The notes beneath the pieces are model-generated. The model saw nothing but the letters and a program-made list of their open reading frames with translations. It did no database searches and had not been told where the DNA came from. Below, in pieces: positions 6,177 to 31,556 of a DNA stretch of 64,000 bases. Both the position numbers and the translations under genes were made by a program. The stretch comes from Candidatus Gilichinskyi gelida. Lineage in GTDB: Bacteria > Acidobacteriota > Thermoanaerobaculia > Gp7-AA8. The stretch is from positions 147,453 through 211,452 of the forward strand of contig JBBPII010000004.1 of NCBI GenBank assembly GCA_038040385.1, given 5' to 3'. The stretch's first letter is position 1. Each line of letters opens with the position of its first letter.

Positions 6177-6220
6177 GAGCCGTTAGCCGGATTTGAACCG
6201 GCGACCTGCTGATTACGAAT
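6177..6220 (-). repeat. 3'-half fragment of tRNA-Thr(CGT), att-like direct repeat
   Basis: The 44 nt at 6177-6220 match 31483-31526 (the 3' half of the intact tRNA-Thr, from the anticodon to the acceptor end) with 1 mismatch (6185 a vs 31491 g). The upstream part cannot form an anticodon stem or D arm, so this is not a functional tRNA. As a cross-check, track ORFs 6158..6421 and 31404..31607 share the peptide IRNQQVAGSNPANGS. Confidence 0.85.
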
Positions 6221-6461
6221 GGCGCTACGGACTCTTGGTTGCTCCCCGACGCTCGTGCTTTCAACCACTTGCGGAATTGCATGGGTGTCGGGAGCGGTCC
6301 ATGAATGTCCGTAGAAACGCAACTTCGACACCCGAACGACACCTCTTTGAACGCCTCCCGCGCGCCTGAGGGGCCACCGCGCCATCCGGGCCCGCGCGGC
6401 GCAGCTCAAGCCGTTCGCCATCGTGCTTGCACGATTTGCCTACAGTGCCTACAATTGATGC

Positions 6462-6704
6462 ATGCAGTACACCGTTCGTGGTATTTCCGTCGCCCTTGAC
6501 GCCGCCTTGCGCAAACGCGCCCGGGCCGCGGGCAAAAGCCTCAACGAGGCCGCCATCGAAGCGCTGGCGGAAGGAACTGGCCTGATCGAAGTTCCCCGGA
6601 AGCGAAGGAATCTCCGAGACATCGCTGGGACGTGGAAGGCGGACAAAGCCTTCGAGACCGCAATCGCCGCGCAGGACCGGGTGGATGAGGATCTCTGGGA
6701 GTGA
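6462..6704 (+). CDS. vapB: type II antitoxin, VapB-like (ribbon-helix-helix type)
   Basis: 80-aa ORF that overlaps the downstream PIN gene by 4 nt (GTGA). The N-terminus MQYTVRGISVALDAALRKRA is typical of small DNA-binding antitoxins. Confidence 0.65.
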   Translation: MQYTVRGISVALDAALRKRARAAGKSLNEAAIEALAEGTGLIEVPRKRRNLRDIAGTWKADKAFETAIAAQDRVDEDLWE

Positions 6705-7084
6705 GGGTCGCTCTCGATACCAATCGATACGTCGATCTCTGCAAAGGCGTGGTCGAGACCGTGACTCTCCTGGAGGAAGCCGAGGCCGTCGTTGTGCCGT
6801 TCGTCGTGCTCGGCGAACTGCGAGCGGGGTTCGCCAACGGTCGTCGTCAGGCGGAGAATGAACGAACGTTGCGACGCTTCCTCTTGAAGGACAGCGTCGA
6901 TGTCCTTTTCGCTGATGACCAGACGACGCATCACTACGCCGCCGTGTTTCTACAACTCCGGAAACAGGGAACGCCGATTCCCACCAACGACATATGGCTT
7001 GCGGCACTGGTTCTTCAGCACAATCTCGTCCTGCACGCGCGGGATCGTCATTTCGATTACCTCCCACAGATCATTCGAGTCTGA
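6701..7084 (+). CDS. vapC: PIN-domain toxin VapC
   Basis: 127 aa. PIN acidic residues appear in the expected contexts: an N-terminal ALDTN motif, a central E, and C-terminal TNDIWLAALV ... RDRHFD. The gene is translationally coupled to the antitoxin. Confidence 0.75.
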   Translation: MRVALDTNRYVDLCKGVVETVTLLEEAEAVVVPFVVLGELRAGFANGRRQAENERTLRRFLLKDSVDVLFADDQTTHHYAAVFLQLRKQGTPIPTNDIWLAALVLQHNLVLHARDRHFDYLPQIIRV

Positions 7085-7253
7085 GAGAGCCCCTTCTTCC
7101 CGCCACGTGCGGCGAGACTTGGGTTGGGGGCGGCGATGCGTCGGTCGTGGCCACCGTCGCCACCGGCCGCTGGGCCGGCCGACTGCGTACAATGACGTTG
7201 ATGTTTTCAGTCGCGGAGAAGCGCCTCACGCCTGATGAGTACCTTCGCGGGGA

Positions 7254-10340
<3,087 letters not shown>

Positions 10341-12524
10341 CTATGCCGGGGACGACATCGCATTCTTCAGGCAGTGCACGAGCCGCGTCCACCGTTCGCC
10401 GCCGCGTCCCGTGCGCACCGCCCTCTCGACCGACCGGGAGTCGCCGACAATGACGACCAGCTTTCGGCCGCGCGTCACCGCCGTGTAGAGGAGATTGCGG
10501 CGCAGCATGATCGAGTGCTGCGGCATCAAGACAATGACAACGGCCTCATACTCGGATCCCTGCGACTTGTGGATCGTCGTGGCGTAGGCCAGCGTCAGTT
10601 GATCGGCTTCGTCGAATGCGTAATCGACGATGACCTCGCCGCCGAAGTCGACGTTAAAGAGCTCCTCCTCGGCGTCCACCGTGGCGATCACGCCGACGTC
10701 ACCGTTGAAAACGCCCTTCTCATAGCTGTTCTCGAGTTGCATGACTTTGTCGCCGGGGCAGAAGAAAACGCCGTTTGGCCGTTCCACGCGCGCCTTGTGT
10801 CGAGCCGGGGGGTTCAGGGCGCTCTGCAACTCGGCGTTCAAAAGATGAATGCCGGCGGGACCTGAGCGCATCGGAGCCAGCACCTGCACGTCCCGCAACG
10901 AGTGGAATCCGAATCTCTGTGGGATCCTCGTTGTGACGAGGTCGACGACCTGACGAACGGCGCGTTCCGGAGAGCTCGCGGGGAAGTAAAACATGTCCGA
11001 ACCCTCGCTGATCGAGCCGAACCGAGGAAGCTCGCCTCGGTTGATCCGGTGCGCATTCAAAACGATTTGACTCCCCTCCGCCTGCCGGTGGATCTCCGTC
11101 AGACGAATCGACGGGATCCGTTCCGACTGCAGGATGTCGTGGAGCACCTGACCGGGGCCGATCGACGGCAACTGATCGGCGTCGCCGACCAGGATGATGG
11201 CAGCTCGAGGGGGCATGGCCCGCAAGATCGCGTCGAGGAGAGGCACGTCGACCATCGAAGACTCGTCAATGATGATCACGTCCGCCTCGAGAGGGTTCTC
11301 TTCGTTGCGCTGGAATTGCCCCGATTGCGGACTCATCTCCAGCAGGCGGTGAATCGTCCGCGCCGTGCTTCCCGTGCTCTCGCCGAGTCGTTTCGCCGCC
11401 CGGCCGGTCGGAGCCGCGAGCGACACCGTCAGCTCGGCGGATTCAAACACGGCCACGAGCGCACGCACCAGGGTCGTTTTTCCGACGCCCGGACCGCCGG
11501 TGATGACGACGGCTCTCGATGTGAGCGCGAGATCGATCGCCCGCCGCTGCGTGGCATCCAACGGAATCCCGCTCTCTGCCTCCGCGATTCCGACGGCCTC
11601 TTCCGGGTCGATGTCATGCCACGCCGGCACTTCGTCCGCGAGCTTCGCCAGCGATGCCGCGATCCGCGATTCGGCGCGATACAGCGCCGGCTCGAACACC
11701 ATGCGCCGGCCGTCGAGATCCTCCTCGACCACGACGCGGCTGGCGATTGCGGTCTTGACCATTTCGGCGACGAGATCCGATTCGATGCCGAGGAGCGCGA
11801 CGGCCTGCCTCACTGCCTCGTCGACGGGGATGCCGCAATGGCCACTCTCCCTCGCCGCCTCGACCACGTGACGCACGCCTGCCATCAACCGAAACGGAGA
11901 TCGGAGGTCGTGACCCAGCCGTTGCGCGATCGCGTCGGCTGTACGGAAGCCGATTCCCCGAACCTCGTGGACAAGGCGATATGGATTCTGACGAATCATG
12001 GCCACGGCGCGCTGGCCGTACTGCTGGTGAATCCGAAACGCGCGCGCGCCGCCGAGACCGATCGAGGCCAGAAAGACCATCAGATCGCGCACGCCGCGCT
12101 GCTGTTCCCAGCTCTCCTTGATCTTCTCCAGCGTCCGCCGGCCAACCCCGGGAATCTCGCGCAGGCGTTCCGGCTCCTGGTCGATAACCCGAAGAACGTC
12201 GGCGCCGAAGCGTTCGACGAACCGCTTCGCCAGCGCCACTCCGATTCCTTTCACATGCCCGGCCGCAAGATAGCTCTCGATGCCTTCCGCGCTGGTCGGC
12301 ATGACCGGCGCTGCCGACTCGGCCGCGAACTGCCGGCCCCACTTCTTGTGACTCCGCCACTCGCCCGTGACCGCGACCAGCTCGCCGGGCTGGAGCTCCA
12401 GGCAGTTGCCGACGAAGGTCACCTCCTCTCCCGAATCCTCGCGCGATCCGACGGCGACGGTGAAGCCCGTGCCGGCGTCGTGGAAATGCACGCGCCGAAG
12501 TGTGAGGTGAATCGTCTCCGGCAT
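10341..12524 (-). CDS. recD2: RecD2-like SF1B ATP-dependent DNA helicase
   Basis: Motifs: Walker A ITGGPGVGKTT, Walker B IIIDESSMVD, LVGDADQLPSIGPG, TIHKSQGSEY. There is an N-terminal HhH-like region. Its stop codon abuts the SNF2 stop codon with zero gap. Confidence 0.9.
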   Translation of the reverse strand: MPETIHLTLRRVHFHDAGTGFTVAVGSREDSGEEVTFVGNCLELQPGELVAVTGEWRSHKKWGRQFAAESAAPVMPTSAEGIESYLAAGHVKGIGVALAKRFVERFGADVLRVIDQEPERLREIPGVGRRTLEKIKESWEQQRGVRDLMVFLASIGLGGARAFRIHQQYGQRAVAMIRQNPYRLVHEVRGIGFRTADAIAQRLGHDLRSPFRLMAGVRHVVEAARESGHCGIPVDEAVRQAVALLGIESDLVAEMVKTAIASRVVVEEDLDGRRMVFEPALYRAESRIAASLAKLADEVPAWHDIDPEEAVGIAEAESGIPLDATQRRAIDLALTSRAVVITGGPGVGKTTLVRALVAVFESAELTVSLAAPTGRAAKRLGESTGSTARTIHRLLEMSPQSGQFQRNEENPLEADVIIIDESSMVDVPLLDAILRAMPPRAAIILVGDADQLPSIGPGQVLHDILQSERIPSIRLTEIHRQAEGSQIVLNAHRINRGELPRFGSISEGSDMFYFPASSPERAVRQVVDLVTTRIPQRFGFHSLRDVQVLAPMRSGPAGIHLLNAELQSALNPPARHKARVERPNGVFFCPGDKVMQLENSYEKGVFNGDVGVIATVDAEEELFNVDFGGEVIVDYAFDEADQLTLAYATTIHKSQGSEYEAVVIVLMPQHSIMLRRNLLYTAVTRGRKLVVIVGDSRSVERAVRTGRGGERWTRLVHCLKNAMSSPA

Positions 12525-12555
12525 ATTCCGAGGATGACACGTTTAGAATCGTTTC

Positions 12556-13380
12556 ATGGCGTGGTACCGAGACTACTTCCCTCCTTCGGTGCCGATCGCG
12601 GTCAAGGGAGGGATCAAGTCGCGCTCGAAGCGCGGCGCGTTCGCGACGAACTGGTGGGCCCGCCGCTGGATCGCCGTTCTCGAGGCGCTGAACCTCGGCG
12701 GACGCTTGCAGCGCGGTCGCAGCTACGCGCGCAAAGGTCAGGTCCTCGACATCGACATCGAGCCGGGCGTGGTCCGCGCCGAGGTGCAGGGATCGCGGCC
12801 GAAACCCTACACCATCGGCATCGGCGTCGCGCAGCTCGGGGGACAACAGACGAAACGCCTGGCAATCGAGTTGGGGAAGAATCCCTATTGTCTGGCCAAG
12901 CTGGCGGCTCGCGAGATGCCGCCGGACGTCGAGAAGCTCTTCGAGGTCGCCCACGTCTCACTCTTTCCGTCGCGCGCCAGCGAGCTGCGAACCGAATGCT
13001 CCTGTCCCGACTGGTCGAATCCGTGCAAGCACATCGCCGCCGTCTACTACCTCCTAGGCGAGGAGTTCGACCGCGATCCCTTCCTCATCTTCCGCCTGCG
13101 CGGCATCGACACCACCGCGCTGCTCGACGCCGTCGGCGGCGCGGCCGCGCCACCGGAGAGGGTTGAAGGGGATGAACCGACTCCGCTACAACAGGGCGAC
13201 TTCTGGGAAGGCGAACGCGCCGAGATCGATCTCACCGTCGACACCACCCGCCCCCCCGCCCCGCTCCTCCATCTTCTCGGAAATCTCCCGTTCTGGCGTG
13301 GAGAGCAGCCGCTGGCAGAGTCGCTCGAACCTGCGTACGCACGCGCCGCTGTCGCGGCCGTGGAGCTTCTGTCGAGTTGA
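12556..13380 (+). CDS. SWIM zinc-finger protein (typical partner of bacterial SNF2 helicases)
   Basis: The SWIM CxC...CxH signature is present as CSCPDWSNPCKHIAAVYY. The N-terminal motif FATNWWARRWI is typical of this family. Confidence 0.8.
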   Translation: MAWYRDYFPPSVPIAVKGGIKSRSKRGAFATNWWARRWIAVLEALNLGGRLQRGRSYARKGQVLDIDIEPGVVRAEVQGSRPKPYTIGIGVAQLGGQQTKRLAIELGKNPYCLAKLAAREMPPDVEKLFEVAHVSLFPSRASELRTECSCPDWSNPCKHIAAVYYLLGEEFDRDPFLIFRLRGIDTTALLDAVGGAAAPPERVEGDEPTPLQQGDFWEGERAEIDLTVDTTRPPAPLLHLLGNLPFWRGEQPLAESLEPAYARAAVAAVELLSS

Positions 13381-13395
13381 GGTGCTGGCACCGCC

Positions 13396-13971
13396 TCACA
13401 TCACCGCACTGTTGCGATAGATCTCGTCTACGATCAAGTCTGCACTCAGCGACGAAACCTCCACCCGTCCCCCCTTGGTCGCGACCCGAGTAGCCCACAC
13501 ACCGTCCGTCCCGCGCTCGTTGACGATGATCCGCCGCTCGCGGTGCGACCCGATCACATACTCACGAAGGGTTGGGATCGTTCGGTAGTACTCGAGCTTC
13601 GGGCCGGTGTCGTACTCTTCCGACGAGTCACTCGTAACCTCGACGAGAATCATGGGGTTGAGTGCCGTCGCGGTCGGGCTGGGCTCGTGTTGTTGCAACG
13701 GGCCGCGGATCACCGAGCCATCGGGAAACGTCGCCAGCCCAACCGCTTCGACAAGGATGCGCAGGTCCGAGGTGTGGACGCGGCCGGGACGATCGCCAAC
13801 GGCGTTGCCGAGCACACGCACCATCTCTGCCGCAAGCGCGGAATGCTCCTCGGAGCCACCAGCCATCGCGTAGATTTCGCCGTCGAGAAACTCGTACTTG
13901 CTGGTGGAGAGCATCTCAAGCGCCACGTAGTCGGCGTAGGTATAACGATGGAGCCGGCGCGGTTCAACCAT
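13396..13971 (-). CDS. Uma2-family (DUF820) restriction-endonuclease-like protein
   Basis: The N-terminus YTYADYVALEMLSTSKYEFLDGEIYAMAGGSEEHSALA and the later HTSDLRI ... PDGSV pattern match the Uma2 family. Confidence 0.7.
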   Translation of the reverse strand: MVEPRRLHRYTYADYVALEMLSTSKYEFLDGEIYAMAGGSEEHSALAAEMVRVLGNAVGDRPGRVHTSDLRILVEAVGLATFPDGSVIRGPLQQHEPSPTATALNPMILVEVTSDSSEEYDTGPKLEYYRTIPTLREYVIGSHRERRIIVNERGTDGVWATRVATKGGRVEVSSLSADLIVDEIYRNSAVM

Positions 13972-14077
13972 GCGGCGATTCTAGCCCCAGATGAGCGGGA
14001 TGCACGTACGTGTCGTGGAACAATTGGTCGCGGTTCGAGCTGGTGCGGGTGAGGGCGCAGGAGTAGTTGCGCTGCAA

Positions 14078-15526
14078 TCAGCTATGAGTGTTGCCCACCG
14101 TAGCCTCGCGGCCAGGCTGACCATAGATGACGACGAGATTGAGCAGGACGACGATGAACATCAATTCGAAGATGTTGGCAAGCGATGTAATGAACTTCGC
14201 GCGCGCAGAAATCGGCACGATGTCGCCGTAACCCGTGGTGGTGATCGTATAGATCATGAAGTATGCGTAATCGAGGAGCTCGAATGGGCGTCCGCTTTCG
14301 ATCACCACTTCCACGTGGAGCTTGTGGTTGATTCCCTCACGATACTTTGTCGCCACGAACCGGTCGTCGTTCGAGACAGCGCGAAGCCTCCACTCGATAC
14401 GGACATCGGGTTTCAGGATCTTCAGCTCCCGCTGAATGAAAGCCCGCACCTGTTCGATTCGCTCTTCCGATAATGCCAGGTTCTTCTGAGCTCCCTCCTG
14501 GGCCGCCAAACTGTCGCTGGCGTGGCCGACGACGGTGATCCTCCACCACTCCGGCTTCTCCGATCGGATCCTTTCGAGCATGCTCTTCCATTCGATGATG
14601 TCCAGACGCGCGCCTTCGATCACTGCTTCGTCACTGTCCTTGAGCTCGGGACGCTCGCGAAGAAGTATCCGCTGATCGTCCGCGCTGGCCGGCCATTTCG
14701 TGATCAACTCGCCGAGTTGCTGCACCACGTCCATCTTCATATGAGCGCTTCGCTCGGTGAACGGCAGTGTGTACGTGGTCACCTTCGTGAGAATGGGTTT
14801 GGCATCGAGGGCGGGTCCCTCGAGGGCGGATTCCAGACCTCGGCGGTCGTGAAGAGCGAGCGCAAAGGTTAGGTCGTATGCCACATGCGAAAAGAGATAG
14901 AGCGCGCCGCAAATGGCGGCGAAGAAATGCCGCCGAATCGCTTCTTGACGCTTCGGATAGTTAATGGTGAGACGGGCGATGACGAGGATGCCGGTGAGTA
15001 CGACACAGCCGATCGCAATGGCCACAAACGACAGTCCTTCAGCCACAGTCCGGAAGCGATCGCCTCGACAGTAAACGAATGTCAGCAATGCTTTCCATAG
15101 CTCTAGCGCCAAGTACACCGAACCGATATGCCACGGCGGCTTGGAACTCCCAGCCCAAGCGCCGCCGATGATGAGAAGGATCGGTGAAACGAGCAACAGT
15201 AGAGCCGTGTAGGGAGCGCCACCCTCAACATCCTTCATTCCGGCGTACCACGTGGCAGCGGTGACGATGCCGGTGATGATCGCAACGATCCAGCCCCATC
15301 CGAAGATGCGCCGCCATAGCGACTCGTTCGCTGCAGGCGAGACCGCTTGCGGTTCACGCTCTTTCGGCGGTGGCGTCGCTTCGGCATTGGACAACGCTCT
15401 TTCCCTTCGTTGAATGACTGCGGACGTGCGCGGACCCACCCTAGGAGTGACGCATCTGCCGATTTCCCTACCGGTGCCATGATATTTTCCTTCCCCTGCA
15501 GGTAGGGAAACGCGGGGTCTCGCCAC
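14078..15526 (-). CDS. membrane protein: K+-channel pore module with OmpA/MotB-like domain inserted before the pore helix
   Basis: The C-terminal selectivity filter is YTITTTGYGD, followed by an inner helix. There are several N-terminal TM helices. Between them lies LPFTERSAHM ... ITVVGHASDSLAAQEGAQKNLALSEERIEQVRAFI, which resembles the OmpA C-like core (GHTD..N..LS..RA..V). GC is lower (30/60 at 14161-14220). The GTG start at 15526 is uncertain. Confidence 0.7.
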   Translation of the reverse strand: MARPRVSLPAGEGKYHGTGREIGRCVTPRVGPRTSAVIQRRERALSNAEATPPPKEREPQAVSPAANESLWRRIFGWGWIVAIITGIVTAATWYAGMKDVEGGAPYTALLLLVSPILLIIGGAWAGSSKPPWHIGSVYLALELWKALLTFVYCRGDRFRTVAEGLSFVAIAIGCVVLTGILVIARLTINYPKRQEAIRRHFFAAICGALYLFSHVAYDLTFALALHDRRGLESALEGPALDAKPILTKVTTYTLPFTERSAHMKMDVVQQLGELITKWPASADDQRILLRERPELKDSDEAVIEGARLDIIEWKSMLERIRSEKPEWWRITVVGHASDSLAAQEGAQKNLALSEERIEQVRAFIQRELKILKPDVRIEWRLRAVSNDDRFVATKYREGINHKLHVEVVIESGRPFELLDYAYFMIYTITTTGYGDIVPISARAKFITSLANIFELMFIVVLLNLVVIYGQPGREATVGNTHS

Positions 15527-15635
15527 TCCTAGGGAGAGGTTCGCGGCGCGGCTTCGCCAGATCGTCTACGGAGACAATCGATCCCTGGCAGAGTGGGGTT
15601 GGCGTCTTGCGTCGTTCGAACAAGGAGAACTGTTG

Positions 15636-21787: not shown

Positions 21788-23092
21788 ATGGCCGAGCAAT
21801 ACACATGCGGTTCGTGCGGCAAGATCGTGGACGAGAAGCCGTGTCCGCACTGTCAAAGCTCTGCGGCGATGAAGCCCCTCGAGCGGCCTTCCAAACCCGC
21901 CTCGAAGGATGATCCCATCACCGCCGCAATCAATCGTGAGGCGCAGCGGCTGAAACCCCAGCAGGCCGGCGCGCCGAAACCGGAGTCCGCGCCGGCGCCC
22001 AAGGCGGTGGTTCCCACCCGGCCGGCGACGCCGGCACCCGTATCGGCACCGGTGCCAAAGCCGATCCCACGCCCCGAAACGCCGCCGCGTCCGCGGCTCG
22101 TCGACCCGGAACCCGAGCCTCCGCCACGGCCGGCCGAATCACGGAAGCCGGCGGCCGAGCCGGAACCTGACGTCCCGGCGCCACCGCGAGTGCCGACGCC
22201 TCCGCCACGACGAGTGCGGCCCCCCGCCCCGTCGCCGGACGCGGTGAAGGGATTGAGCGGATTCCTCTCGCTGCTGAAGGACGAAGATTTCCGCGCGATC
22301 GTGATCTGCGGCCGTCCGAACTCAGGCAAGTCGGAGATCGTCAGCGGTTTCTCTCGCGCCAACGCCGCGGTCCGCGGCAAATCACAGATCAAGGGACGCA
22401 AGTCTCAGCAGGAGACACTGCTCACAGTTGGTGGAACGGAGCACGGCACGGTTTGGTACGAGATTCCGAATACCGATCGCGATCTCGTATTCCTCGATCC
22501 ATCCGGCGAGTTTTTCAGACGACTCTCGCCGGATGAGCAAGCCAGACTGGGTGTCGACATCACCGAGGCGCACTTCGATTTCGTCCGCGATGCGATGAAG
22601 TTCACCTCCGGAATCCTGTTGGTCGTCGACGTTTCAGAGCCGGACAACACAGACATTCCCGAAGCGCCATGGCGATACCAGGAACGGATGCTGTCCTTCA
22701 CGCTTGCCGCGCTCCGCTGGCTGCGATTCGACAAGAAAGCCGTTCTCCCGGCCTTGGGCGTCGTCGACAACATCGCCGCGCGCGTTCGTAAAGTGCGGCG
22801 CCTCGATGTTCCTGTCCTCGTTCTTCTGTCCAAAGTAGACCGTGTACCGAACTACACGAACGAGTCGCCGCTCGACTTCTCGCGCAAGTGGTTGCCGCAG
22901 CTTCACGCCTCGCTCCTGACGCATACGCGCATTTTCCACATCGACTATTGCCACACCATGATCGGGCCACGCGACGCGGCGCGCGCCGAGGAGCGCCCGT
23001 GCGGCGTACTGCTCTCGCTGGAATGGCTCATGGCCCCGCCGCTGCGGCTGCTGCCCCGCATTCCCAGCCGATGGCTGGAGAGGTGGAAGTGA
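21788..23092 (+). CDS. zinc-ribbon + Pro-rich linker + P-loop GTPase (operon gene 5)
   Basis: The zinc ribbon is CGSCGKIVDEKPCPHC, followed by a Pro/Ala-rich linker of about 110 aa. GTPase motifs: G1 GRPNSGKS, G3 DPSGE, G4-like SKVD. It is a paralog of gene 2. Confidence 0.75.
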   Translation: MAEQYTCGSCGKIVDEKPCPHCQSSAAMKPLERPSKPASKDDPITAAINREAQRLKPQQAGAPKPESAPAPKAVVPTRPATPAPVSAPVPKPIPRPETPPRPRLVDPEPEPPPRPAESRKPAAEPEPDVPAPPRVPTPPPRRVRPPAPSPDAVKGLSGFLSLLKDEDFRAIVICGRPNSGKSEIVSGFSRANAAVRGKSQIKGRKSQQETLLTVGGTEHGTVWYEIPNTDRDLVFLDPSGEFFRRLSPDEQARLGVDITEAHFDFVRDAMKFTSGILLVVDVSEPDNTDIPEAPWRYQERMLSFTLAALRWLRFDKKAVLPALGVVDNIAARVRKVRRLDVPVLVLLSKVDRVPNYTNESPLDFSRKWLPQLHASLLTHTRIFHIDYCHTMIGPRDAARAEERPCGVLLSLEWLMAPPLRLLPRIPSRWLERWK

Positions 23093-24855
23093 TGGAGGGG
23101 CCGCGTCATCCCGACCATCGCTGGTTCCGGTGGGCCGTATTGGGCGCCATATTGGTCGGTATCGCCGTTGCGATCCCTTTCTACTTCTGGATCGTCCGTT
23201 CATTCCGTTTCACGTCGCTCGATGAGGGGGTGCGTACCCAGCTCGCAGCGCTGAAGATGGATCACGACGCGACTTCGGTCATCGAGAGGCGTTGGGTCGC
23301 CGAGGGATTCGGCACCGGCTATCTGCAGGCGCCAGTGGGACCGATGGCCTGTCCACCCGCGGCGGCATCGAGTCCCCCACACGAACGAAGCGCCGCCCAA
23401 CAGGCGTTCGTCGCATTGGAAGAGACCGATCCCGACGGCCGCATCGAGCGTCTGGCGCCGATCTCAGACGCCAATCCCTCGAACCTGCTGGTCGCGTTGA
23501 TCTACGGAACGGCGCTGGTCAAGGCAGACCGGATGGCGGAGGGCGAGCAAATCATCGGCCGCGCTCTCGGGCAGACGAATGAAGACGAGAGCATCATCGA
23601 CGCCGCCAAGCGGCCGGGCACGCCGCTCGATCTCGGCAACGACCGCGTGGCCACGGTCATCTATCTGCACCATGCGCTCGGCGTCGCCGGCCTGTCGCAG
23701 TCGGGCAGCACACCGCCGTGGCGGCCGCTCAAGAACGTCATCGGCTCGGTGCGGCATCTCAGCCGCAAGAGTCTCATCGGCTCGTCGCGAGATCCGGCGG
23801 TGTCGGGCAAGCTGCTCATTCCTGCCCCCGGCTGCGGCGCCGGCGTGGACGCGCTCTCCTCGTACGATCTGTTCAACAATCTCATCGTCGGCTACGTACG
23901 AGGGAAGTTCGTCGGCAATGAGAGCGAGCGGCAGAAAGAGTTCTACCGCGACCGGAAGACGTATCCGAGCGCCGTCCACCGGCTCCTGCTGCTGCAGCGC
24001 GATCGAGCCGGGACGGAGTGGAAAGACGAATCGGCGCTATGGGCGCTGTCGAATGCGGAGCAGGTGCTCGACTTGCGGACGCCTGACGACGCGCGACTGA
24101 ACTTCAACATCATCCAATTGCTCGACTGGTGGACGGCTGACGAACGTTGCCGCACCTGTCCCGCAGAAATCCTGCAGGGCGTCCATACGATGAAGGGCGT
24201 GCTCCTGCAGAACGCCATTCGCCGCCACAACGTGCCGCAGGAGCAGCAGGCGGAGTTCGCCCGCGGCATCACGCGCATGCTGGCCGACTCGAACATCGAG
24301 CGCGCGCGACTGGAGGCCGATGCGGAAACGATCCGGGGATGGCTTTCCAATCCGCGCCAGGCGCAGACGCTGGCCGATCTGTTTGTCGCCGACCGGGCCC
24401 GCGCCGCATTCCCCGGCTGGGTCGTGCAACCCGAACAGGCCGAGGAGCCGCCGTACGAGAAGCTCGGCACGCGCGCGGATGCCTGGCGCGCCGCCGCGCA
24501 ATCCGACTTCGCCGCAGCCGTGGCGAAATGGTCGAGCGAGCGTCCGGCGGTGGAGAAGAAGCAAACACTCATCGCCATCCGCCAGATGCTCGGATGGACG
24601 AAGGCGCCGGACGAAGTGAAGGCCGTGGAGAAATCGTTCGGCTGGGGTTCGCGGCTCTCGATTTTCCTCGCCGCATCGCATCTCTTCTGGGCTTTGGTGG
24701 CCGCCGTTCTCGGCTTGATCGTCTGGACGGCGATCGTCACCGTGCTGGTGCAGGTGCATGAGCGGCGCTCGCTTCACACATCGTTCTATAACATCGAGTT
24801 CGACTATCTGCGCAGCACCGACCGCACGTCGCATTCAGGAAGACCGCGGCCGTGA
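23092..24855 (+). CDS. two-TM membrane protein with helical repeat ectodomain (operon gene 6)
   Basis: ATG 23092 (or GTG 23089) overlaps the upstream TGA. The N-terminal TM is WAVLGAILVGIAVAIPFYFWIV and the C-terminal TM is LFWALVAAVLGLIVWTAIVTVLV. Confidence 0.6.
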   Translation: MEGPRHPDHRWFRWAVLGAILVGIAVAIPFYFWIVRSFRFTSLDEGVRTQLAALKMDHDATSVIERRWVAEGFGTGYLQAPVGPMACPPAAASSPPHERSAAQQAFVALEETDPDGRIERLAPISDANPSNLLVALIYGTALVKADRMAEGEQIIGRALGQTNEDESIIDAAKRPGTPLDLGNDRVATVIYLHHALGVAGLSQSGSTPPWRPLKNVIGSVRHLSRKSLIGSSRDPAVSGKLLIPAPGCGAGVDALSSYDLFNNLIVGYVRGKFVGNESERQKEFYRDRKTYPSAVHRLLLLQRDRAGTEWKDESALWALSNAEQVLDLRTPDDARLNFNIIQLLDWWTADERCRTCPAEILQGVHTMKGVLLQNAIRRHNVPQEQQAEFARGITRMLADSNIERARLEADAETIRGWLSNPRQAQTLADLFVADRARAAFPGWVVQPEQAEEPPYEKLGTRADAWRAAAQSDFAAAVAKWSSERPAVEKKQTLIAIRQMLGWTKAPDEVKAVEKSFGWGSRLSIFLAASHLFWALVAAVLGLIVWTAIVTVLVQVHERRSLHTSFYNIEFDYLRSTDRTSHSGRPRP

Positions 24856-27800
24856 CGATGATCCCCAGGGCGACGAGCCTGTTGCTGCTCATCGCGCCGG
24901 TCGTGCTCTTCATCCTGGCGTTGCGCGACCGCCGCCAGGCATTCCGGCCCGCCGGGCGCAAGCTGCTGCTCGCCGTCTACGTCATACCGGTGATCGCGCC
25001 GCTGATCATGGCCGTCTTCTGGCGCTTCAGCGACACGCGCATCGTCATCGAGCTGCGCGGCGTCGCGTTCCGCGCCCTCGGGGACTCCCCGATTCGCAAG
25101 GTGATCATGGAACGCCGCGTCGGCGGCGGACGCATCGTCATCGGCGACGCTCCCCGCCGGCGGACCGCGTCGACGCCATCTCTCGGAACGATCACCTTTA
25201 ACCCAACCACGCACGGCAGCGACAAGAATGGCATCGCCACGCTCGAACTGCCTCGGCCGCAACTGAGATCAGGAATCATAGGCGCCGGCTCCGACGGTCT
25301 TCTCGGATCGACGGCGCTCGAGGACGGCGACGACATCTGCATCGACGGCGACTGCTGGAAGTACGACGCCTCCGAGCGTTCGTTCTTCTCCAGTCACGAC
25401 CGGGTGCGCATCCCTCGCAGGATGGCCAAGCTGCCCGGCATCGACTTCGCCTTCCCGCTGCGGTGGGCTTCGCCGGTGACCGCGGGACTCCGCACCTATC
25501 CGCTGCAGTGGCTTGCCAGGCGCGGCGCGGCGGCCGGCGCGCCGCAGCAAAGAGTGCGCTCCTTCCTTTGCTACGCCAGGCCGGGACCGCGACTGCGCCT
25601 CGTCCTTCTCGACTCCAGCGTCTCGGTGGTCCGCAAGGGCAGCGCCGTGGCCATTCCATCGAGCCTGACCATCGACGCCGAGCACCCGCTGGCGTTCTAC
25701 TCGCTGCCGCCGGAGTCGGACGTCTTCGCGGCGCCGGGCATCACCGAACGCCGCAGCGTCGTCTACCGGCCCGGCAAGCGAAGTTTCGCCATCGAGCTGG
25801 ACACACCCGAGGTGCATTCGCTGGCGGAGCGGGAGCTCGATCGCCTGACGCTCGGAAACGCGGAGCGGCGAAAAAAGACGCCGACGGTCGGCCTCTCGAT
25901 GGGCAATGCGCAGATGGCCGATCGCAGCCTCTATTTCAGCGGAATCAGCGAGTCGGTCGCCCTCCAGGCCAACTCGCTCTTCGAGTTTCCGCGCTTCTTT
26001 CCGCACAACATCGGGACGTCGTTTCGCATCGTCTCGCCGCGCGGCCCGACCGACGCTTCGCTCGGCGACGTGGCGTGGATCGGCGCGACGGATCTCGCGG
26101 CCGTTCGTCTCGACGTGCTCCGCCCGCCGCTGCTGCTCCTGCTGATCGGCCTCCTGCTCCAGCTCTGCAAGTGGGGCGCAGCCATCGCGGCGCGCTTCAC
26201 CACCAATCAGGCGTTGCTGGCCGGCACCCTCGAATGCCTGGTCGGCGTCCGACTCCTCCTCGGCCACCGCATCTGGGCGCTGCCACCGCATGAAGTCGAG
26301 GGGATCGAGCTGGCCCTCGTGGTCTGGATCGCGCTTCCATGGTTTTTCTTGGCGGCGAGCGCTCCGGTCACCGTTTCATCGTCGCGCGGCACGCTCCTCC
26401 GCGATTTGCCGAAGGAGCCGTGGCTTCCCGCCGCAGCCGGGTTGCTCTTCTCCGCGATTTTCTGTCTTCGCGTCGTCGACGAACCGAAGAAAGCCGCCGT
26501 CTGGGTCGCCTGCCATCTTCTCGCTGTTGGCGTGGCGCTGATTCGCGAGCCGCGCATCCGCGATCGCGCTGTGGCGTGGACGCGCGCCGCGACGGCGAAG
26601 CTGCGCCAGTGGTTGCGGTCGTTCGCCGCCCGGCTCGCATCCAGCGGTGTCGCCAGATCGATCCGCGACTGGATCATCAGCGACACACTCGTCGTGAGAT
26701 TGATCCTCGGCACGGCGGCGGCGGTGACCATCTGGCTCATCGTGCGCACCTTTGCCGATCCTCTGTGGATCGTCGGCTTCGAGCTGCTCTTCTTCATCGT
26801 CGGCTGCTTCGTGGTTCCCGTGGTGCGCTTCGTCCGCGACCGGTTCGACGTCGAATTGCGCCCGTGGCTGTACGCCGCAAGCCTCTTCTTTTTCTTCCGA
26901 TTCTTTCTCGTCCTGCTCGGATTCAAGGAGAGCGTGCCGGTGGGAGGTACACGTCTCGCCCTGAGCGCGATCTACGTGCCCGCGGCACTGATCCTGGAAG
27001 CGACGTTCCTCTGGACGCTCTGGCAGCGGCTGCAGCGGAATGACCGCTTGATGCCGTCCGACGTCGCGGCGTCGGCTGTGATCATGTTTTTCGTCTGGGT
27101 GGCGCCGGCGCTGGTGACGAGCGATATCGGCCTTGCGCTTCAGCACCTGCCGGTGTTCGCATTCCTGCTCGCCGACTGCCGGCATGCGCGCGCCCGGCAA
27201 CCCGCCGCGTCGCCCGTCGACCGCATGCTCCAGCATTTCCCCGCGGCGGTGATCGTCGCCGTCCTTCTTTTCGTCGCCATCGCTCCGGCATGGCGGCTGG
27301 TCATGCCGTTGTTCGGCAGCGACGAGAAGCTGCTGGAGCGCGCGTCGGACTCGAACTTCGCTCGCTTCATCCACTTCGCGGAGCCCGAGCAGCTCAAGGA
27401 GCTGGCCACCAAGCAGGGCGAGAGCCTCGCCGTCACCTCAGCCATCCTGCAGCGGTACATCAACACCGGTGTGATCGGCCGCGGTTACGGCACGTCGGAC
27501 ATCAGCCCCCACCTGGCGGACACGGCACTGCGCGATTTCGCCCCCGCGGTCTTTGTGGCCGCCGAATGGGGCTTCGTCGGCACGTTCGCCATGCTGCTCG
27601 TCTATGGCCTTTTCGCGGTGATCGGCCGCCTGGCTACTCCATGGGCCCGCAACAGCGGCGAGCCGGCCACGGTCGGCGGCGTCATCGAATACGCAGCGGC
27701 CGCCACCATCGCCATCGCCAGCATCTACATGGTTCTGGCGAACCATGAGCTTCTGCTCCTCACCGGCAAGAATGCGTATCTGCTCGGACTCGATTCGGCG

Positions 27801-27911
27801 GGCGACGTCTTGGAGTCGCTGCTGATCGTTCTCTTGATCGCGTTCGGCTCAGCGACTCTGCGCGACACCGCCCCCACGCCGGTGGTCTCCGCAACGGGAG
27901 CGCGGTCATGA
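24852..27911 (+). CDS. divergent SEDS-family (RodA/FtsW/SpoVE-like) polytopic membrane protein with ~430-aa N-terminal extension (operon gene 7)
   Basis: The GTGA start/stop overlap couples it to gene 6. The C-terminal half is polytopic. GVIGRGYGTSDISPHLADTALRDFAPAVFVAAEWGFVGTFAMLLVYG aligns to the SEDS core G.G.G......LPE.HTDFIFA...EE.G..G. The C-terminal LLLTGKNAYLLGLDSAGD occupies the place of LP.tG..LPf.SYGGSS. Confidence 0.65.
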   Translation: MTMIPRATSLLLLIAPVVLFILALRDRRQAFRPAGRKLLLAVYVIPVIAPLIMAVFWRFSDTRIVIELRGVAFRALGDSPIRKVIMERRVGGGRIVIGDAPRRRTASTPSLGTITFNPTTHGSDKNGIATLELPRPQLRSGIIGAGSDGLLGSTALEDGDDICIDGDCWKYDASERSFFSSHDRVRIPRRMAKLPGIDFAFPLRWASPVTAGLRTYPLQWLARRGAAAGAPQQRVRSFLCYARPGPRLRLVLLDSSVSVVRKGSAVAIPSSLTIDAEHPLAFYSLPPESDVFAAPGITERRSVVYRPGKRSFAIELDTPEVHSLAERELDRLTLGNAERRKKTPTVGLSMGNAQMADRSLYFSGISESVALQANSLFEFPRFFPHNIGTSFRIVSPRGPTDASLGDVAWIGATDLAAVRLDVLRPPLLLLLIGLLLQLCKWGAAIAARFTTNQALLAGTLECLVGVRLLLGHRIWALPPHEVEGIELALVVWIALPWFFLAASAPVTVSSSRGTLLRDLPKEPWLPAAAGLLFSAIFCLRVVDEPKKAAVWVACHLLAVGVALIREPRIRDRAVAWTRAATAKLRQWLRSFAARLASSGVARSIRDWIISDTLVVRLILGTAAAVTIWLIVRTFADPLWIVGFELLFFIVGCFVVPVVRFVRDRFDVELRPWLYAASLFFFFRFFLVLLGFKESVPVGGTRLALSAIYVPAALILEATFLWTLWQRLQRNDRLMPSDVAASAVIMFFVWVAPALVTSDIGLALQHLPVFAFLLADCRHARARQPAASPVDRMLQHFPAAVIVAVLLFVAIAPAWRLVMPLFGSDEKLLERASDSNFARFIHFAEPEQLKELATKQGESLAVTSAILQRYINTGVIGRGYGTSDISPHLADTALRDFAPAVFVAAEWGFVGTFAMLLVYGLFAVIGRLATPWARNSGEPATVGGVIEYAAAATIAIASIYMVLANHELLLLTGKNAYLLGLDSAGDVLESLLIVLLIAFGSATLRDTAPTPVVSATGARS

Positions 27912-30802
27912 AGCAGCGCGTCGTCTTCATCGCGATGGCGGTTCTCGTGGTGGCGCTGGTGTGGTCGCGTCAGACCATCGCACCACTCTCCTATTACTCG
28001 TCCAAGAGCTACGTCGAGCGTACGAATGGGCTCATCCGGCGCGGCGCGCTCCATTACGACTGCTTCGACCGCCAGATCAAGCTGACGGGGCGCGCCACTC
28101 CCGCGGAGCGCAAGTGGTTTTCGGCGAGTTACCTGGAGACCGATGTCGAGTTGTACAACCGCAACCGCGAGCTCTTCGGACACTTCTTCGTCGTCTCCGA
28201 CTGCAAATTGATCCAAATCAATCCGTTTCTTCGGACCATCCGTCTGCCGTTCGCCACGTCGCTGGAATGGCTCGGCGACATCGATTACTCCGGCCCGGGT
28301 GCCGATGCCGCGCTGGTCTCCTCCAACGGACGCACGATTCTGATCAATCATGCCTCGCCGTTCGCGCCTCTCCGCGAAGTGCGAACACCCGTCAGCGCCA
28401 TCGAGAACATCGCGGCAAACGTCGTCCATCTCGATTTCGCCGGCGGTCCCCGAACGCCCGCTGTCGAGGTGCACAACGTCGGCGGCGCGACGGTCGCCGA
28501 GCAGCGCATCAAGGAGGGGCAGTCGGGAGAGGCACGGATCCTCGGACATTCCATGCCCGAGGGGCGCATCGCCAGGCTGGAGACCGGCGATTGGCTGTAT
28601 CTCGCCGCGCAGCAGCCGGTGGAGCGTTCCGAGACCTTTCTCTTCACCGGCGAGCGCTCCTTCGAAAAGCTCAGCATCGTGCGCACGCGCAACGCGCAGC
28701 AGGAGCGCACGTACGCCGAGGAAGAGCCGCTGCTTCGCTGGATCGGCGGCGAAAACGGCGACGAGATGCTCACATTCGGAGAGGCGCTGGCCCGCAGCGT
28801 CTCGAACGCGTTGGGGCAAGCCGACAAAAACCGGCGTAAAGATCTGGTGAGGCAATTCGATGTGCAGCTCTCCATTGATCGCTCGCTGCAGGTCTCCCTC
28901 GATGAAGGATTGCGCGAGACAGCCACGGATCTCATGGCCAACTCCGCGGGCGGCGATCCATTTGCCGCATCGATGACGGTGATGAACGGCAAGACCGGCG
29001 AGATCCTGGCCGCCGCCAGTTTTCCCGGAGAGCGGGACCTCGCCGACGTCGACTCTCTCGGTGAAGGCGAGCGCCGCAGCCTTCTCGTCAATCACAACTT
29101 CAAACGGCATCCCATCGGATCGGCCGGCAAGCCGTTCTTCTATGCCGCGATCGCTTCCAGACATCCCTACCTTCTCGACATGACCATCGCCCCTCACGGG
29201 CCGGTACGCCGCCCCGACGGCGGCGAAGGGCAGCGCGAGGTCTTCCAATTCTTCCTCACGCGCGACTACAGGCTCTGGCCGCACACCGACCGGGCCATGG
29301 ATTTCCTGTCTGCGCTCGAGCGCTCCTGCAACAAGTACACGGTGGAGCTGGCCACCTTGGCGCTTGCTGCACCGCCGGAGCGCAACGAGCGGAGGCTGAC
29401 CGAGCCGCTCGACCGCGTCTTTCGGCCGCAGCCGGGCGTCCAATGGCCGCCGCCCGGCGCGCCCGGCACGCTTTGGATCGGATCGCAGGCATTGACGTTT
29501 CCGCCGAGCCTCGGCCGTTACATGAACGAGAACTGGACGCCTGTACCGCGCGGCGAGCACACCCCCGCGGTGCTCCAGCCGGGAAGCCTCGACCGCATCG
29601 ACGAGGCGCCGTTCATCGAGACCTTCGGCGACATCACCGGCGTGTTCACGTACGGCGGCATCGCGCCGAACGTCACGGAGGAGTCGTCGGAGAAGCTCGG
29701 TCGAGCGGCGCTCCAGTCGAGCCAATACGACCTGCGGGTGTGGCGGCCGCTCATCGAGCGCCTCGGCGCCGGCGAGAAGATCGACGCGGCATGGAAGATC
29801 AACGCCGCATTTCAAGCCGTATCACCGGAGCGCGTGAATCTGGCGCTCAATCACGTCACCGAGTTCCGCACCGAGTTCGTCAGCCTCCTCCTGGGCGGCT
29901 CGACCTCATTGTGGACCAACTTTCAATTGGCCGAGGCGCTCTCGCGACTGGTGACGAAGCGGCAGGTCGAAGCGACACTCGTGCATGATTTGCCCGCGCA
30001 CGGCGGCCAGTCGGAGCCGCGGCCGCCGCGCGATTTTCCGGAATTGGCCATCACCAACGAGAGCCGCGATGCGGTTCTCCGCGGAATGCGCCGGACCATC
30101 CTCGGGGCGCAGGGTACGGCGCACATCGCTGCCGGGCGGGTGACCGATCTGCAGCAACGGTACCGCGATTACAACGTCGCCGTTTTCGCCAAGACCGGTT
30201 CGCCGACCGTCGTTCGGCCGGAAGCGAAACCGCTCGCTTCGACGCTCGACGAGCTCGTGAATCGCGGCCGGCTCTTTTTTCGTGCCGGCGAGATCTGCAC
30301 CTCTCCCGACGGGCGCACGGTCGTGCCGTACGGCAGCCGGGGAACGCCACAGCGCGCGGCATTTGCCTCCGCGCTACAGCGCGCCGCGCGCGCCGTCGGC
30401 CGCCCCATGTCGCCGCGCACCAGCGCGCGCCTACTCGGTCTCACCGATCTCTTCCACCGCCGCCGCAACCAACTCATCTTTCCGTCGCCGGAGGCCGTGC
30501 GCCTGACGGAAACCACCGCGCTGCCGATCTACGTCATCGCCGGCCAGCTCGTTCTCAATCGCGACCATCCCATCTTCGATCCCGCATTGCAGGCCGACTC
30601 CAGCGCCGCCTTCATCTTCTCCATCGTCAAGTGGCGGGGCGCTGGCCTCGACAATGAGGCCATCCCCACGCCGGACGATCTGCGCCGCGAAGACTCGCGC
30701 GTCATCACCGTCGTTCTCTACTTCGACATCGGTCCGGGCAGCCCGGTCGCCGTGGAGGCGGCGCGAGCGCTGATTCCGCGACTGTATCCGCTGCTGGATT
30801 AG
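27908..30802 (+). CDS. class-B penicillin-binding-protein-like transpeptidase with long N-terminal domain (operon gene 8)
   Basis: The ATGA overlap couples it to gene 7. There is an N-terminal TM segment. The three transpeptidase motifs appear in the correct order: SxxK as IGSAGKPF, SxN as RSCNKY, KTG as AKTGSP. Confidence 0.75.
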   Translation: MKQRVVFIAMAVLVVALVWSRQTIAPLSYYSSKSYVERTNGLIRRGALHYDCFDRQIKLTGRATPAERKWFSASYLETDVELYNRNRELFGHFFVVSDCKLIQINPFLRTIRLPFATSLEWLGDIDYSGPGADAALVSSNGRTILINHASPFAPLREVRTPVSAIENIAANVVHLDFAGGPRTPAVEVHNVGGATVAEQRIKEGQSGEARILGHSMPEGRIARLETGDWLYLAAQQPVERSETFLFTGERSFEKLSIVRTRNAQQERTYAEEEPLLRWIGGENGDEMLTFGEALARSVSNALGQADKNRRKDLVRQFDVQLSIDRSLQVSLDEGLRETATDLMANSAGGDPFAASMTVMNGKTGEILAAASFPGERDLADVDSLGEGERRSLLVNHNFKRHPIGSAGKPFFYAAIASRHPYLLDMTIAPHGPVRRPDGGEGQREVFQFFLTRDYRLWPHTDRAMDFLSALERSCNKYTVELATLALAAPPERNERRLTEPLDRVFRPQPGVQWPPPGAPGTLWIGSQALTFPPSLGRYMNENWTPVPRGEHTPAVLQPGSLDRIDEAPFIETFGDITGVFTYGGIAPNVTEESSEKLGRAALQSSQYDLRVWRPLIERLGAGEKIDAAWKINAAFQAVSPERVNLALNHVTEFRTEFVSLLLGGSTSLWTNFQLAEALSRLVTKRQVEATLVHDLPAHGGQSEPRPPRDFPELAITNESRDAVLRGMRRTILGAQGTAHIAAGRVTDLQQRYRDYNVAVFAKTGSPTVVRPEAKPLASTLDELVNRGRLFFRAGEICTSPDGRTVVPYGSRGTPQRAAFASALQRAARAVGRPMSPRTSARLLGLTDLFHRRRNQLIFPSPEAVRLTETTALPIYVIAGQLVLNRDHPIFDPALQADSSAAFIFSIVKWRGAGLDNEAIPTPDDLRREDSRVITVVLYFDIGPGSPVAVEAARALIPRLYPLLD

Positions 30803-30811
30803 GAGGTTCGC

Positions 30812-31453
30812 ATGCCCGCTGGAGATCCTCTGGCCGTGATCGATGACGAGATCTTTCGCCAACGCGTCCGCGATCGAGTCGCCGCCGAGCGGCGAAGCCA
30901 CCTGACGCGAATTCTGGAAGCGCCGCTCACGACGATCATCATCGCGGCGGTGGTCGGCGGCTCATTGACGTTCTACTACGACCGACTTCGCCTGCAGACC
31001 GAGCATCAGCTTCTTGCGGAGCGCTCCGCGGCCGAGCGGAAGCTGGCCCAGCACGAAATCGAGCTGACCAAGACGTTCGAGACGTTCGAGAATCTCAGCC
31101 ACCTCATCGATCGCCGGCTCTGGCACACCCGCCAACTGATCTGGATCAGTGGCCGCAACCCCACTCTGGAGCAGCTTGCCCCGTATCGAACGGAATACGC
31201 GAAAGTCGTCGACGAATGGAATGAAAACTACAACCGCAATCTCGCCCTCGTCGAGCGCTATTTCGGCGCCGATGCACGCGTGGAATTGGAAACGACGATC
31301 TCGAGCCAGTTCCGCCAGCTTCATCACGACCTCGGCAAGCCTGGGCACGACCTCTTCGCACTCGACGCCGCCGCCAACCGTCTGAACGAGCGCACATACG
31401 CGTTCAACCGGCTGCTTCTATCGCGGACTCGATCGTTCGACCGCGCACGATAG
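30812..31453 (+). CDS. small single-pass membrane protein (operon gene 9)
   Basis: AGGAGG RBS precedes ATG 30812. The TM segment is LTTIIIAAVVGGSLTFYY, followed by a helical C-terminus. Confidence 0.55.
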   Translation: MPAGDPLAVIDDEIFRQRVRDRVAAERRSHLTRILEAPLTTIIIAAVVGGSLTFYYDRLRLQTEHQLLAERSAAERKLAQHEIELTKTFETFENLSHLIDRRLWHTRQLIWISGRNPTLEQLAPYRTEYAKVVDEWNENYNRNLALVERYFGADARVELETTISSQFRQLHHDLGKPGHDLFALDAAANRLNERTYAFNRLLLSRTRSFDRAR

Positions 31454-31480
31454 GGAAACGCCGCGCGCAGACTGAGGGAC

Positions 31481-31556
31481 TGGAGCCGTTGGCCGGATTT
31501 GAACCGGCGACCTGCTGATTACGAATCAGCTGCTCTGCCAACTGAGCTACAACGGC
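31481..31556 (-). tRNA. tRNA-Thr (anticodon CGT), CCA encoded
   Basis: The reverse complement GCCGTTGTAGCTCAGTTGGCAGAGCAGCTGATTCGTAATCAGCAGGTCGCCGGTTCAAATCCGGCCAACGGCTCCA folds as a cloverleaf. The anticodon arm is GCTGA/TTCGTAA/TCAGC. Confidence 0.95.

Follow-up and report, generated by a model that had tools for sequence, protein, structure and literature searches.

tRNA genes are classic landing sites of integrative elements. Islands that have decayed and lost their integrase are common, and island finders that depend on the integrase miss them. Islander tDNA islands (PMC4383910) are defined by an intact tRNA gene together with a displaced 3' fragment of it, and they include a class in which the crossover is centred on the anticodon. 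Cis-mobilisable elements (CIMEs; PMC5704250) are decayed integrative and conjugative elements (ICEs) or integrative and mobilisable elements (IMEs) that keep attL and attR and have lost their integration and transfer genes. Here we analysed 64,000 nucleotides from Candidatus Gilichinskyi gelida (Acidobacteriota; Thermoanaerobaculia), taken from contig JBBPII010000004.1 and referred to below as the window. In it, a tRNA-Thr(CGT) gene and a copy of its 3' half bracket 25.3 kb of accessory DNA (6221-31480). We consider this segment to be, with good probability, the remnant of a site-specific integrative element of a Thermoanaerobaculia family that has decayed and lost its integrase.

A displaced tRNA-Thr(CGT) fragment at the far end of the segment

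The bracket is a direct repeat of 44 nucleotides (nt), both copies on the minus strand, in which 6177-6220 (GAGCCGTTAGCCGG...ACGAAT) matches 31483-31526 except at one position, where the left copy has A (6185) and the tRNA copy has G (31491). Extending it outward by two bases (6175-6220 versus 31481-31526) gives 46 nt with two mismatches. The second of these, TT in the left copy for TG in the tRNA, turns the encoded CCA end into CAA. A search allowing up to three mismatches found exactly two copies in the 64 kb and no match in 100 dinucleotide-preserving shuffles, and short-word BLAST revealed no further degenerate copies in the window. ARAGORN and Rfam predict tRNA-Thr(CGT) at the right-hand copy, and neither predicts a tRNA at 6177-6260. 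With the anticodon at tRNA position 34, the repeat corresponds to tRNA positions 31-74, from one base ahead of the anticodon loop to the acceptor 3' end. An earlier annotation of this DNA made without database searches (the sequence-only reading) had described the length, mismatch and orientation of the repeat, the intact tRNA on the right with a left copy that does not fold as one, and the span from anticodon loop to acceptor end; our searches reproduce all of these.

We considered whether the bracket could be an assembly artefact, the low-GC left flank having been joined through the shared tRNA sequence to an island that came from another genome or from a free circle. In independent k=31 assemblies of five sequencing runs, the repeat is not resolved and contigs break inside both of its copies. 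The contig carrying the left flank ends at window position 6215, and a contig of 25,331 nt starts at 6191, its length implying an end near 31521; the part compared, its first 10,894 nt, is identical to window 6191-17084. A chimera would also fit the GC content of the left flank, which is unlike everything to its right, and the finding of the exact CHAT protein of that flank only on contigs of 5-10 kb, when island proteins are found on a 396-kb contig as well. However, modern assemblers work with k-mers or reads longer than this repeat (35-44 nt), and the difference in the protein look-up can be explained by a different start-codon call. Neither of the left-copy changes, the A at 6185 or the shift from CCA to CAA, is found in ~45 functional tRNA-Thr genes of relatives, and the right copy is canonical. 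Moreover, in four other contigs such a fragment directly precedes the conserved element arm described below, with unrelated host DNA beyond it. Because the changes in the left copy are unseen in functional tRNA-Thr genes and the junction of fragment and arm is the rule elsewhere, a chimeric origin is highly improbable.

The tRNA-Thr(CGT) gene as a strain-variable insertion site

The 44-mer was found in 13 contigs among 185,579 species-representative genomes, all of them Thermoanaerobaculia or Acidobacteriota metagenome-assembled genomes. It occurs once per contig, as the tRNA, except in two contigs where the 44-mer recurs outside a tRNA, at distances of 9.8 kb and 18 kb. Being present either as the tRNA alone or as a tRNA/fragment pair, it is not a dispersed repeat. 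Scanning metagenome contigs with the protein of the first right-flank gene as seed gave 28 further loci. The comparison covered ~45 related loci (individual loci are given by L numbers below). The right flank of the window is syntenic with these Thermoanaerobaculia loci, and the pairing of tRNA-Thr with tRNA-Arg is kept in L002, L008, L016, L021-L023 and L051-L053.

Similarity between the window and its relatives ends at the tRNA's 3' end (31478-31481), even in the two closest contigs (91% identical), and the DNA downstream of tRNA-Thr varies almost everywhere among relatives. In three genomes the far edge of this variable region is the core rpsF-rpsR-DUF2232-rplI operon, at distances from tRNA-Thr of 1.46 kb (L010), 0.9 kb (L040) and 6.5 kb (L053); L010 and L040 are near-empty alleles. 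This operon is absent from the window and from the 3.7 kb further left. The window interior is absent from the ~45 loci save for vapBC, and the start of the SNF2 gene in L059, so that no relative shares the same 25 kb at this locus. The search for an empty site, proposed in the sequence-only reading, succeeded in part, in that near-empty alleles exist; an isogenic empty site with the left flank of the window was not found among these loci. Since there is no clean before/after pair, insertion is deduced from the hot-spot pattern. The end of similarity at the tRNA, the variable DNA downstream and the near-empty alleles together indicate a strain-variable hot spot, here documented between rpsF and tRNA-Thr(CGT) in poorly studied, uncultured soil Thermoanaerobaculia.

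Seven other contigs contain a bracket of tRNA plus fragment, with spans of 0.5-45 kb, and several loci have an integrase at the same tRNA. The tyrosine integrase of JADGNY010000010.1, seen as its C-terminal catalytic part (Pfam E 1e-16), extends into the intact tRNA, with the fragment 9.8 kb away. A complete integrase of 397 amino acids (aa) abuts the tRNA in Ga0070741_10000015, and a 45-kb IMG/VR provirus has a 414-aa integrase beside the tRNA and a 47-nt fragment at its opposite end. Beside the tRNA of the complete chromosome OY970284.1 there is a decayed integrase remnant, which is followed by a CHAT gene. The second 44-mer copy in JBBRNB010000058.1 delimits an island of ~18 kb. Brackets without an integrase span 1.7 kb in L042, 2.9 kb in L051, ~1 kb in L052 and ~0.5 kb in L026. 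Since several brackets carry none, integrase loss is evidently common at this site. The proposal that the repeat is the attL/attR scar of a tyrosine-integrase element is supported by its geometry, by the integrase-bearing relatives at the same tRNA and by the insertion pattern.

JADGNY010000010.1 contains, at ~68.9-80.5 kb, three tandem tRNA-Thr(CGT) copies that form an accreted array: a 74-nt tRNA-like copy (L003 4927-5000), a 44-nt fragment 1.6 kb on (L003 6610-6653), and the intact tRNA with the integrase 9.8 kb beyond (L012 435-510).

A conserved element arm lies just inside the fragment

The ~125 nt inside the window fragment have counterparts, at 73-82% identity, inside the fragments of JADGNY, JBBRNB, L042 and L051. 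The arm is thus present in five independent elements including the window, the other positions being L003 6654-6780, L042 7674-7800, L051 8468-8590 and L015 1-76 (reverse complement). Arm DNA of this kind was never found beside an intact tRNA among the loci compared, and neither the window nor the 3.7 kb on its left has a further copy. The arm contains a conserved hairpin (window ~6240-6296) that folds in three elements and shows compensatory changes at 5 of its 21 pairs; the window copy is weak (z = -1.70). It also contains two CGACACC repeats, at 6326 and 6337 (to 6343), 11 bp apart and ~105 nt from the core. Judged from this conservation, the DNA just inside the fragment looks like the element's own attP arm (P arm).

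Tandem GACACC repeats at 11-12 bp spacing are also found on the tRNA-side (P') arm of JADGNY, L042, JBBRNB and L052, 100-230 nt inside the intact tRNA. All tandem pairs observed fall within att arms, and ~0.3 pairs would be expected by chance in 64 kb, as estimated from the density of single hits. We regard the repeats as putative arm-type integrase-binding sites. The single 9-mer SGACACCCG was rejected as a signal, its frequency in the window being no higher than expected by chance; the tandem arrangement alone is informative. In the window, the P' arm repeats are absent at 31300-31480 and at 7085-7260, as are the degenerate tRNA scraps and the terminator hairpin typical of that arm. The core of 44-46 nt, the hairpin, the tandem GACACC repeats and, often, vapBC provide a signature for one element family.

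Elsewhere, degenerate scraps of the tRNA 3' half occur 80-110 nt downstream of intact tRNAs or fragments (L005 ~1360-1400, L009 6239-6264, L015 203-221, L052 ~10520-10545 and L042 ~9290-9320), often beside a conserved terminator hairpin (GCCACYGTTTCCAGTGGC). They resemble the traces that earlier integrations or excisions would leave. Searches of 6000-7400 for known RNA families, promoters and terminators gave nothing meaningful; a Plastid-ycf2 match that overlaps the tRNA fragment was discarded at 25 bits against a threshold of 66.

The island contains no integrase and is probably fixed

We searched for an integrase in the 64-kb window and the 3.7 kb further left. No integrase or recombinase family of Pfam (including PF00589) matched the main open reading frames (ORFs) or the gap ORFs of at least 80 aa. 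The tBLASTn search suggested in the sequence-only reading was run on the window with two locus-specific integrases, the C-terminal part from JADGNY and the full protein of L032, and found no remnant. A local tyrosine-recombinase hidden Markov model (HMM) built from 14 integrase sequences, run at full sensitivity against six-frame ORFs of the whole window, gave nothing below E = 1. The 3.7 kb to the left likewise contain no integrase. These results agree with the original observation that no recombinase ORF is visible. Among the segment ORFs scanned there was no match to serine recombinase, transposase, excisionase, relaxase or phage families, and no coupling protein or type IV secretion system was seen. 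Comparison of 10 cargo proteins with PHROGs found no structural, packaging or replication family; the matches were limited to the SWIM protein (a family of unknown function) and the channel (a K+ transporter family). A protein search seeded with the 143-aa JADGNY integrase fragment brought up an unrelated ICE-like element (L017) and short fragments, and no full-length version.

We propose that a tyrosine integrase would have joined the element to the chromosome by recombination between attP and the anticodon-loop region of tRNA-Thr(CGT). If attP carried a copy of the last 44-46 nt of the tRNA, the event would have restored a complete tRNA gene at the proximal end (31481-31556), with the original 3' half moved out to the distal end (6175-6220). 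The distal end appears to retain its element arm, with the hairpin, the two GACACC repeats and vapBC. The integrase gene and the tRNA-side arm would have been lost, either by deletion or through replacement by a later insertion at the tRNA that was itself followed by deletion. Loss of both would leave the island unable to excise itself and probably fixed.

The sequence-only reading left two states open, a decayed or immobilised island and an element mobilised in trans. Decay is favoured, because the putative arm repeats are present at the fragment and absent at the tRNA, and mobilisation in trans is the less likely state. The segment could still be a mobilisable hitch-hiker of the CIME type, moving in cis or in trans with the integrase of a related tRNA-Thr(CGT) element that sits elsewhere in the genome or lands alongside. 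With 1-2 mismatches in 46 nt, both of its core sites are nearly intact, its P arm is well conserved, and integrase-less brackets are common at this site (L026, L052, L042 and L051). The near-identity of vapBC across divergent hosts, the tandem array of three tRNA-Thr copies or fragments in JADGNY and the established CIME concept (PMC5704250) agree with such a history. We nevertheless consider it unlikely, given that the tandem GACACC repeats and the integrase-proximal arm are missing beside the window tRNA, that the region searched contains no integrase, and that the mini-islands of L026 and L052, with a truncated fragment and no hairpin, resemble deletion scars more than active units. A bolder form of this idea, which we rate as quite improbable, is that hitch-hikers without an integrase, each an att site plus an addiction module, may form a family whose working end consists of fragment, hairpin arm and vapBC. 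They would borrow integrases specific for tRNA-Thr(CGT), and the window island would be a cargo-laden and still mobilisable member. If so, the family would spread among soil Thermoanaerobaculia, and the island would move its conflict operon of GTPase, SEDS (shape, elongation, division and sporulation) and penicillin-binding protein (PBP) genes between genomes.

Several points weigh against a decayed and immobile integrative element. The closest relatives (91% identical at the nucleotide level) hold other DNA at the site, and no isogenic empty-site allele came to light. The difference between fragment and tRNA could reflect a differing incoming attP and not age. If the GACACC repeats are dispensable for recombination, loss of the P' arm is uninformative on mobility. 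The search for a helper integrase covered 64 kb of the genome. Finally, the cargo is only mildly atypical in composition, and its large operon has ~60%-identical orthologues in many Thermoanaerobaculia; together these imply that the donor was a close relative or that the island has been resident for a long time.

A vapBC cassette at the end of the element

Inward of the fragment, following ~240 nt of non-coding DNA, lies a gene pair for a predicted ribbon-helix-helix (RHH) antitoxin and then a predicted PIN toxin, overlapping by 4 nt, which is the organisation of type II VapBC systems. The same cassette adjoins tRNA-Thr(CGT) in L026 at 94-97% nucleotide identity, and the flank protein of that locus is only 53% identical to that of the window. 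L051 has the cassette at 92.8% nucleotide identity in a non-syntenic flank, and L052 and L053 at 90.4% and 87.5%. In three of these four loci (L026, L051 and L052) it lies between the tRNA fragment and the tRNA; a tRNA fragment was not detected in L053. In L059, an ENA contig from another study, the junction of vapBC and SNF2 recurs at 95-97% nucleotide identity with a different left flank, which means that vapBC and cargo are linked in more than one context. That a near-identical vapBC sits between fragment and tRNA in divergent or non-syntenic hosts supports a recent exchange between hosts of the element end that bears it. As an addiction module, vapBC would favour retention of the island.

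The argument for exchange counts only vapBC copies at 90-97% nucleotide identity. High identity of the VapC protein was rejected as proof of transfer, since copies at 87-89% amino-acid identity are only ~75% identical at the nucleotide level and occur away from any tRNA in Luteitalea- or Vicinamibacteria-type contigs. VapC (6701-7084) has 7093 database homologues at E < 1e-10, with more than 100 clusters at amino-acid identities of at least 83% across Thermoanaerobaculia, Vicinamibacterales and Luteitalea, an unusually strong conservation for a toxin.

The cassette also bears on how many events built the island. An old vapBC mini-island like those of L051 and L052, in the order fragment, P arm, vapBC, P' arm and tRNA, may have been joined by a second insertion of 24.4 kb (7105-31480) at the tRNA. 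A later deletion would then have taken out the integrase, the two inner arms and the tRNA fragment between the insertions. This would be a variant history of the integrative remnant that we favour and not an alternative to it. In four relatives the tRNA follows the cassette (~6420-7104) within 30-1000 nt, similarity to those relatives stops sharply at 7087-7104, the codon-third-position GC content (GC3) of vapBC is lower than that of the cargo (0.66-0.73 versus 0.75-0.85), and accretion at the tRNA is seen in JADGNY. However, there is no third fragment or arm remnant between vapC and the SNF2 gene, the L059 junction indicates that vapBC and cargo travel or persist together, and the mini-islands are equally explicable as deletion derivatives that retained the addiction module. 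A composite origin in two steps is possible, though less likely than not.

Cargo and flanks of the island

The features of the locus are listed in Table 1. Downstream of vapBC the segment encodes, from left to right, an SNF2/DUF3670 helicase, RecD2, a SWIM protein, a Uma2 nuclease and a channel, followed by an operon of 15.4 kb. This order agrees with the cargo given in the sequence-only reading (VapBC, SNF2/SWIM, RecD2, Uma2, the channel and a GTPase/SEDS/PBP operon). By PADLOC, proteins of the first block resemble ZorD/DpdE and RecD. The cargo is accessory DNA and consists largely of conflict- or defence-type genes.

Table 1 Features of the tRNA-Thr(CGT) island and its flanks, in window coordinates
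Feature	Position	Strand	Basis
CHAT/TPR protein	835-3915	+	Pfam
Hypothetical protein, 259 aa	3940-4719	+	
S8 peptidase	4763-5932	-	Pfam
Displaced 3' fragment of tRNA-Thr(CGT), distal core site (P-O-B', 'attR' in lambda nomenclature)	6175-6220	-	Repeat match; not called as tRNA
Element-side P arm (putative)	6221-6345	+	73-82% identity to arms of four other elements; hairpin; tandem repeats
vapBC cassette including upstream palindrome	6420-7104	+	Pfam; nucleotide identity to tRNA-adjacent copies
vapB	6462-6704	+	FitA-like RHH, E 7e-6
vapC	6701-7084	+	PIN, E 5e-11
Cargo block 1 as a whole	7254-16032	both	Pfam; PADLOC resemblances; gene calls on Logan contig
SNF2/DUF3670 helicase	7254-10340	+	Pfam
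RecD2	10341-12524	-	Pfam
SWIM protein	12556-13380	+	Pfam
Uma2 nuclease	13396-13971	-	Pfam
K+-channel-like protein	14078-15526	-	Pfam
Small hypothetical protein	within 7254-16032		
Cargo block 2, eight-gene operon (~15.4 kb)	16033-31453	+	
Zinc-ribbon and DO-GTPase2-like protein, 356 aa	16033-17103	+	
A	ends 18845	+	
B, GAP1-like	ends 21778	+	
C, zinc-ribbon GTPase-like	21788-23092	+	
D	ends 24855	+	
E, SEDS-like membrane protein	24852-27911	+	
F, class-B PBP-like	27908-30802	+	
Membrane/coiled-coil protein, 213 aa	30812-31453	+	
Intact tRNA-Thr(CGT); 3' part 31483-31526 is the proximal core site (B-O-P', 'attL')	31481-31556	-	ARAGORN, Rfam; synteny of relatives starts here
tRNA-Arg(TCG), first conserved gene of the core right flank	31611-31687	+	ARAGORN, Rfam

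GC content is 0.56-0.60 in positions 1-6000, ~0.65 in the segment and 0.65-0.70 to its right, and GC3 follows the same order, with 0.60-0.68 in the left flank, 0.66-0.85 in the segment and 0.89-0.92 in core genes. The tetranucleotide distance of the island to the right flank is 0.146, compared to 0.075-0.09 between core segments. Beyond the two tRNAs, the right flank continues with a 470-aa protein and onward to plsX and further genes, at a GC3 of ~0.9.

Many Thermoanaerobaculia keep the gene order A to F of the large operon at ~60% amino-acid identity, and the flanks differ in each case. The operon was rejected as a normal neighbour of tRNA-Thr, as its flanks are others in L049, L050 and a P0014 contig, and L049 has no nearby tRNA. 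The SxxK, SxN and KTG motifs of F are invariant in an alignment of 25 sequences, and its profile matches class-B PBPs in the Protein Data Bank (PDB). Distant homologues of F occur in Thiomargarita and Achromatium. E aligns weakly over its full length with the FtsW/RodA/SpoVE family (E = 0.015, which does not reach the Pfam cut-off), and searches of the PDB with the single sequence and with a three-sequence profile returned nothing for it. The 356-aa first protein scores 24.6 bits for DO-GTPase2, under the cut-off of 27, and its zinc-ribbon matches are weak. B of the window has no GAP1-N2 match, and its L050 orthologue reaches 24.6 bits against a cut-off of 24. In its GTPase and GAP1-like content the operon resembles, at scores below or only just above the cut-offs, the GAP1-N2 DO-GTPase conflict systems (Kaur et al. 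2020, PMC7159879), in the text of which 'penicillin-binding', 'transpeptidase' and 'FtsW' do not occur. We tentatively suggest that it may be a variant of these systems, so far undescribed. Finding a GTPase/GAP1/SEDS/PBP operon on mobile DNA supports an accessory and possibly conflict-related role for it over housekeeping cell-wall synthesis.

A Uma2 gene adjoining tRNA-Thr is 94% identical at the nucleotide level between two divergent genomes (L021 2802-3397 and L011 5823-6418), and Uma2 seems to be a second module besides vapBC that moves between hosts at this tRNA. The window Uma2 (13396-13971) is 42% identical to these two.

The left flank (1-6176) is not syntenic with any relative. Four other genomes (L014, L005, L031 and L035) have CHAT homologues in the same variable region, which lies downstream of tRNA-Thr. 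The CHAT/TPR gene of the window is preceded by genes for a sigma-70 region 4 protein and a zf-HC2 anti-sigma-like protein (L001 805-2510). In gene content and composition this flank is probably older variable or island DNA and non-core. The idea of a tandem second island to the left gains from its foreign composition, its lack of synteny and the position of the CHAT homologues; the bracket that such an island should have was not seen, as no further tRNA fragment occurs within 9.9 kb to the left (the window part plus 3.7 kb beyond).

Comparison with known mobile systems

A prophage or phage satellite differs from the window segment, the cargo of which contains no phage genes by Pfam or, for the 10 proteins compared, by PHROGs. 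The 45-kb provirus IMGVR_UViG_3300022181_000002 uses the same 35-nt core of tRNA-Thr(CGT) in the same orientation, with its 47-nt fragment at the far end. Unlike the window segment, it encodes a 414-aa integrase, is AT-rich, shares neither arm nor cargo with the window and comes from another host. As in islands stabilised by type II VapBC, the RHH/PIN pair of the window is at the very end of the element, and it is kept in stripped mini-islands. The stabilising role is here a prediction, and the VapC family (at 87-89% amino-acid identity) also occurs away from tRNAs.

Closer parallels are found in the Islander tDNA islands. The bracketed segment has an intact tRNA with its cognate fragment in direct orientation and a repeat block from the anticodon loop to the 3' end, a canonical crossover sublocation, and it is absent from relatives; its site is a hot spot with differing islands, at which related loci carry an integrase beside the tRNA. 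It differs in having neither an integrase nor an integrase-proximal arm, and its host belongs to uncultured Thermoanaerobaculia (Acidobacteriota). Because the interval contains no integrase gene, it would fail the integrase filter of Islander.

The segment resembles CIMEs in that both core att sites are present, there are no recombinase or transfer genes, the target is a tRNA 3' end, and tandem accretion is seen in relatives. In contrast to CIMEs, there are no signs of a conjugative or mobilisable ancestry, and one arm appears to be lost, which makes mobilisation doubtful. The tRNA-Thr island is an ordinary type of feature, the remnant of a mobile element at a well-used integration hot spot, and it is best described as a decayed, CIME-like remnant that is probably immobile.

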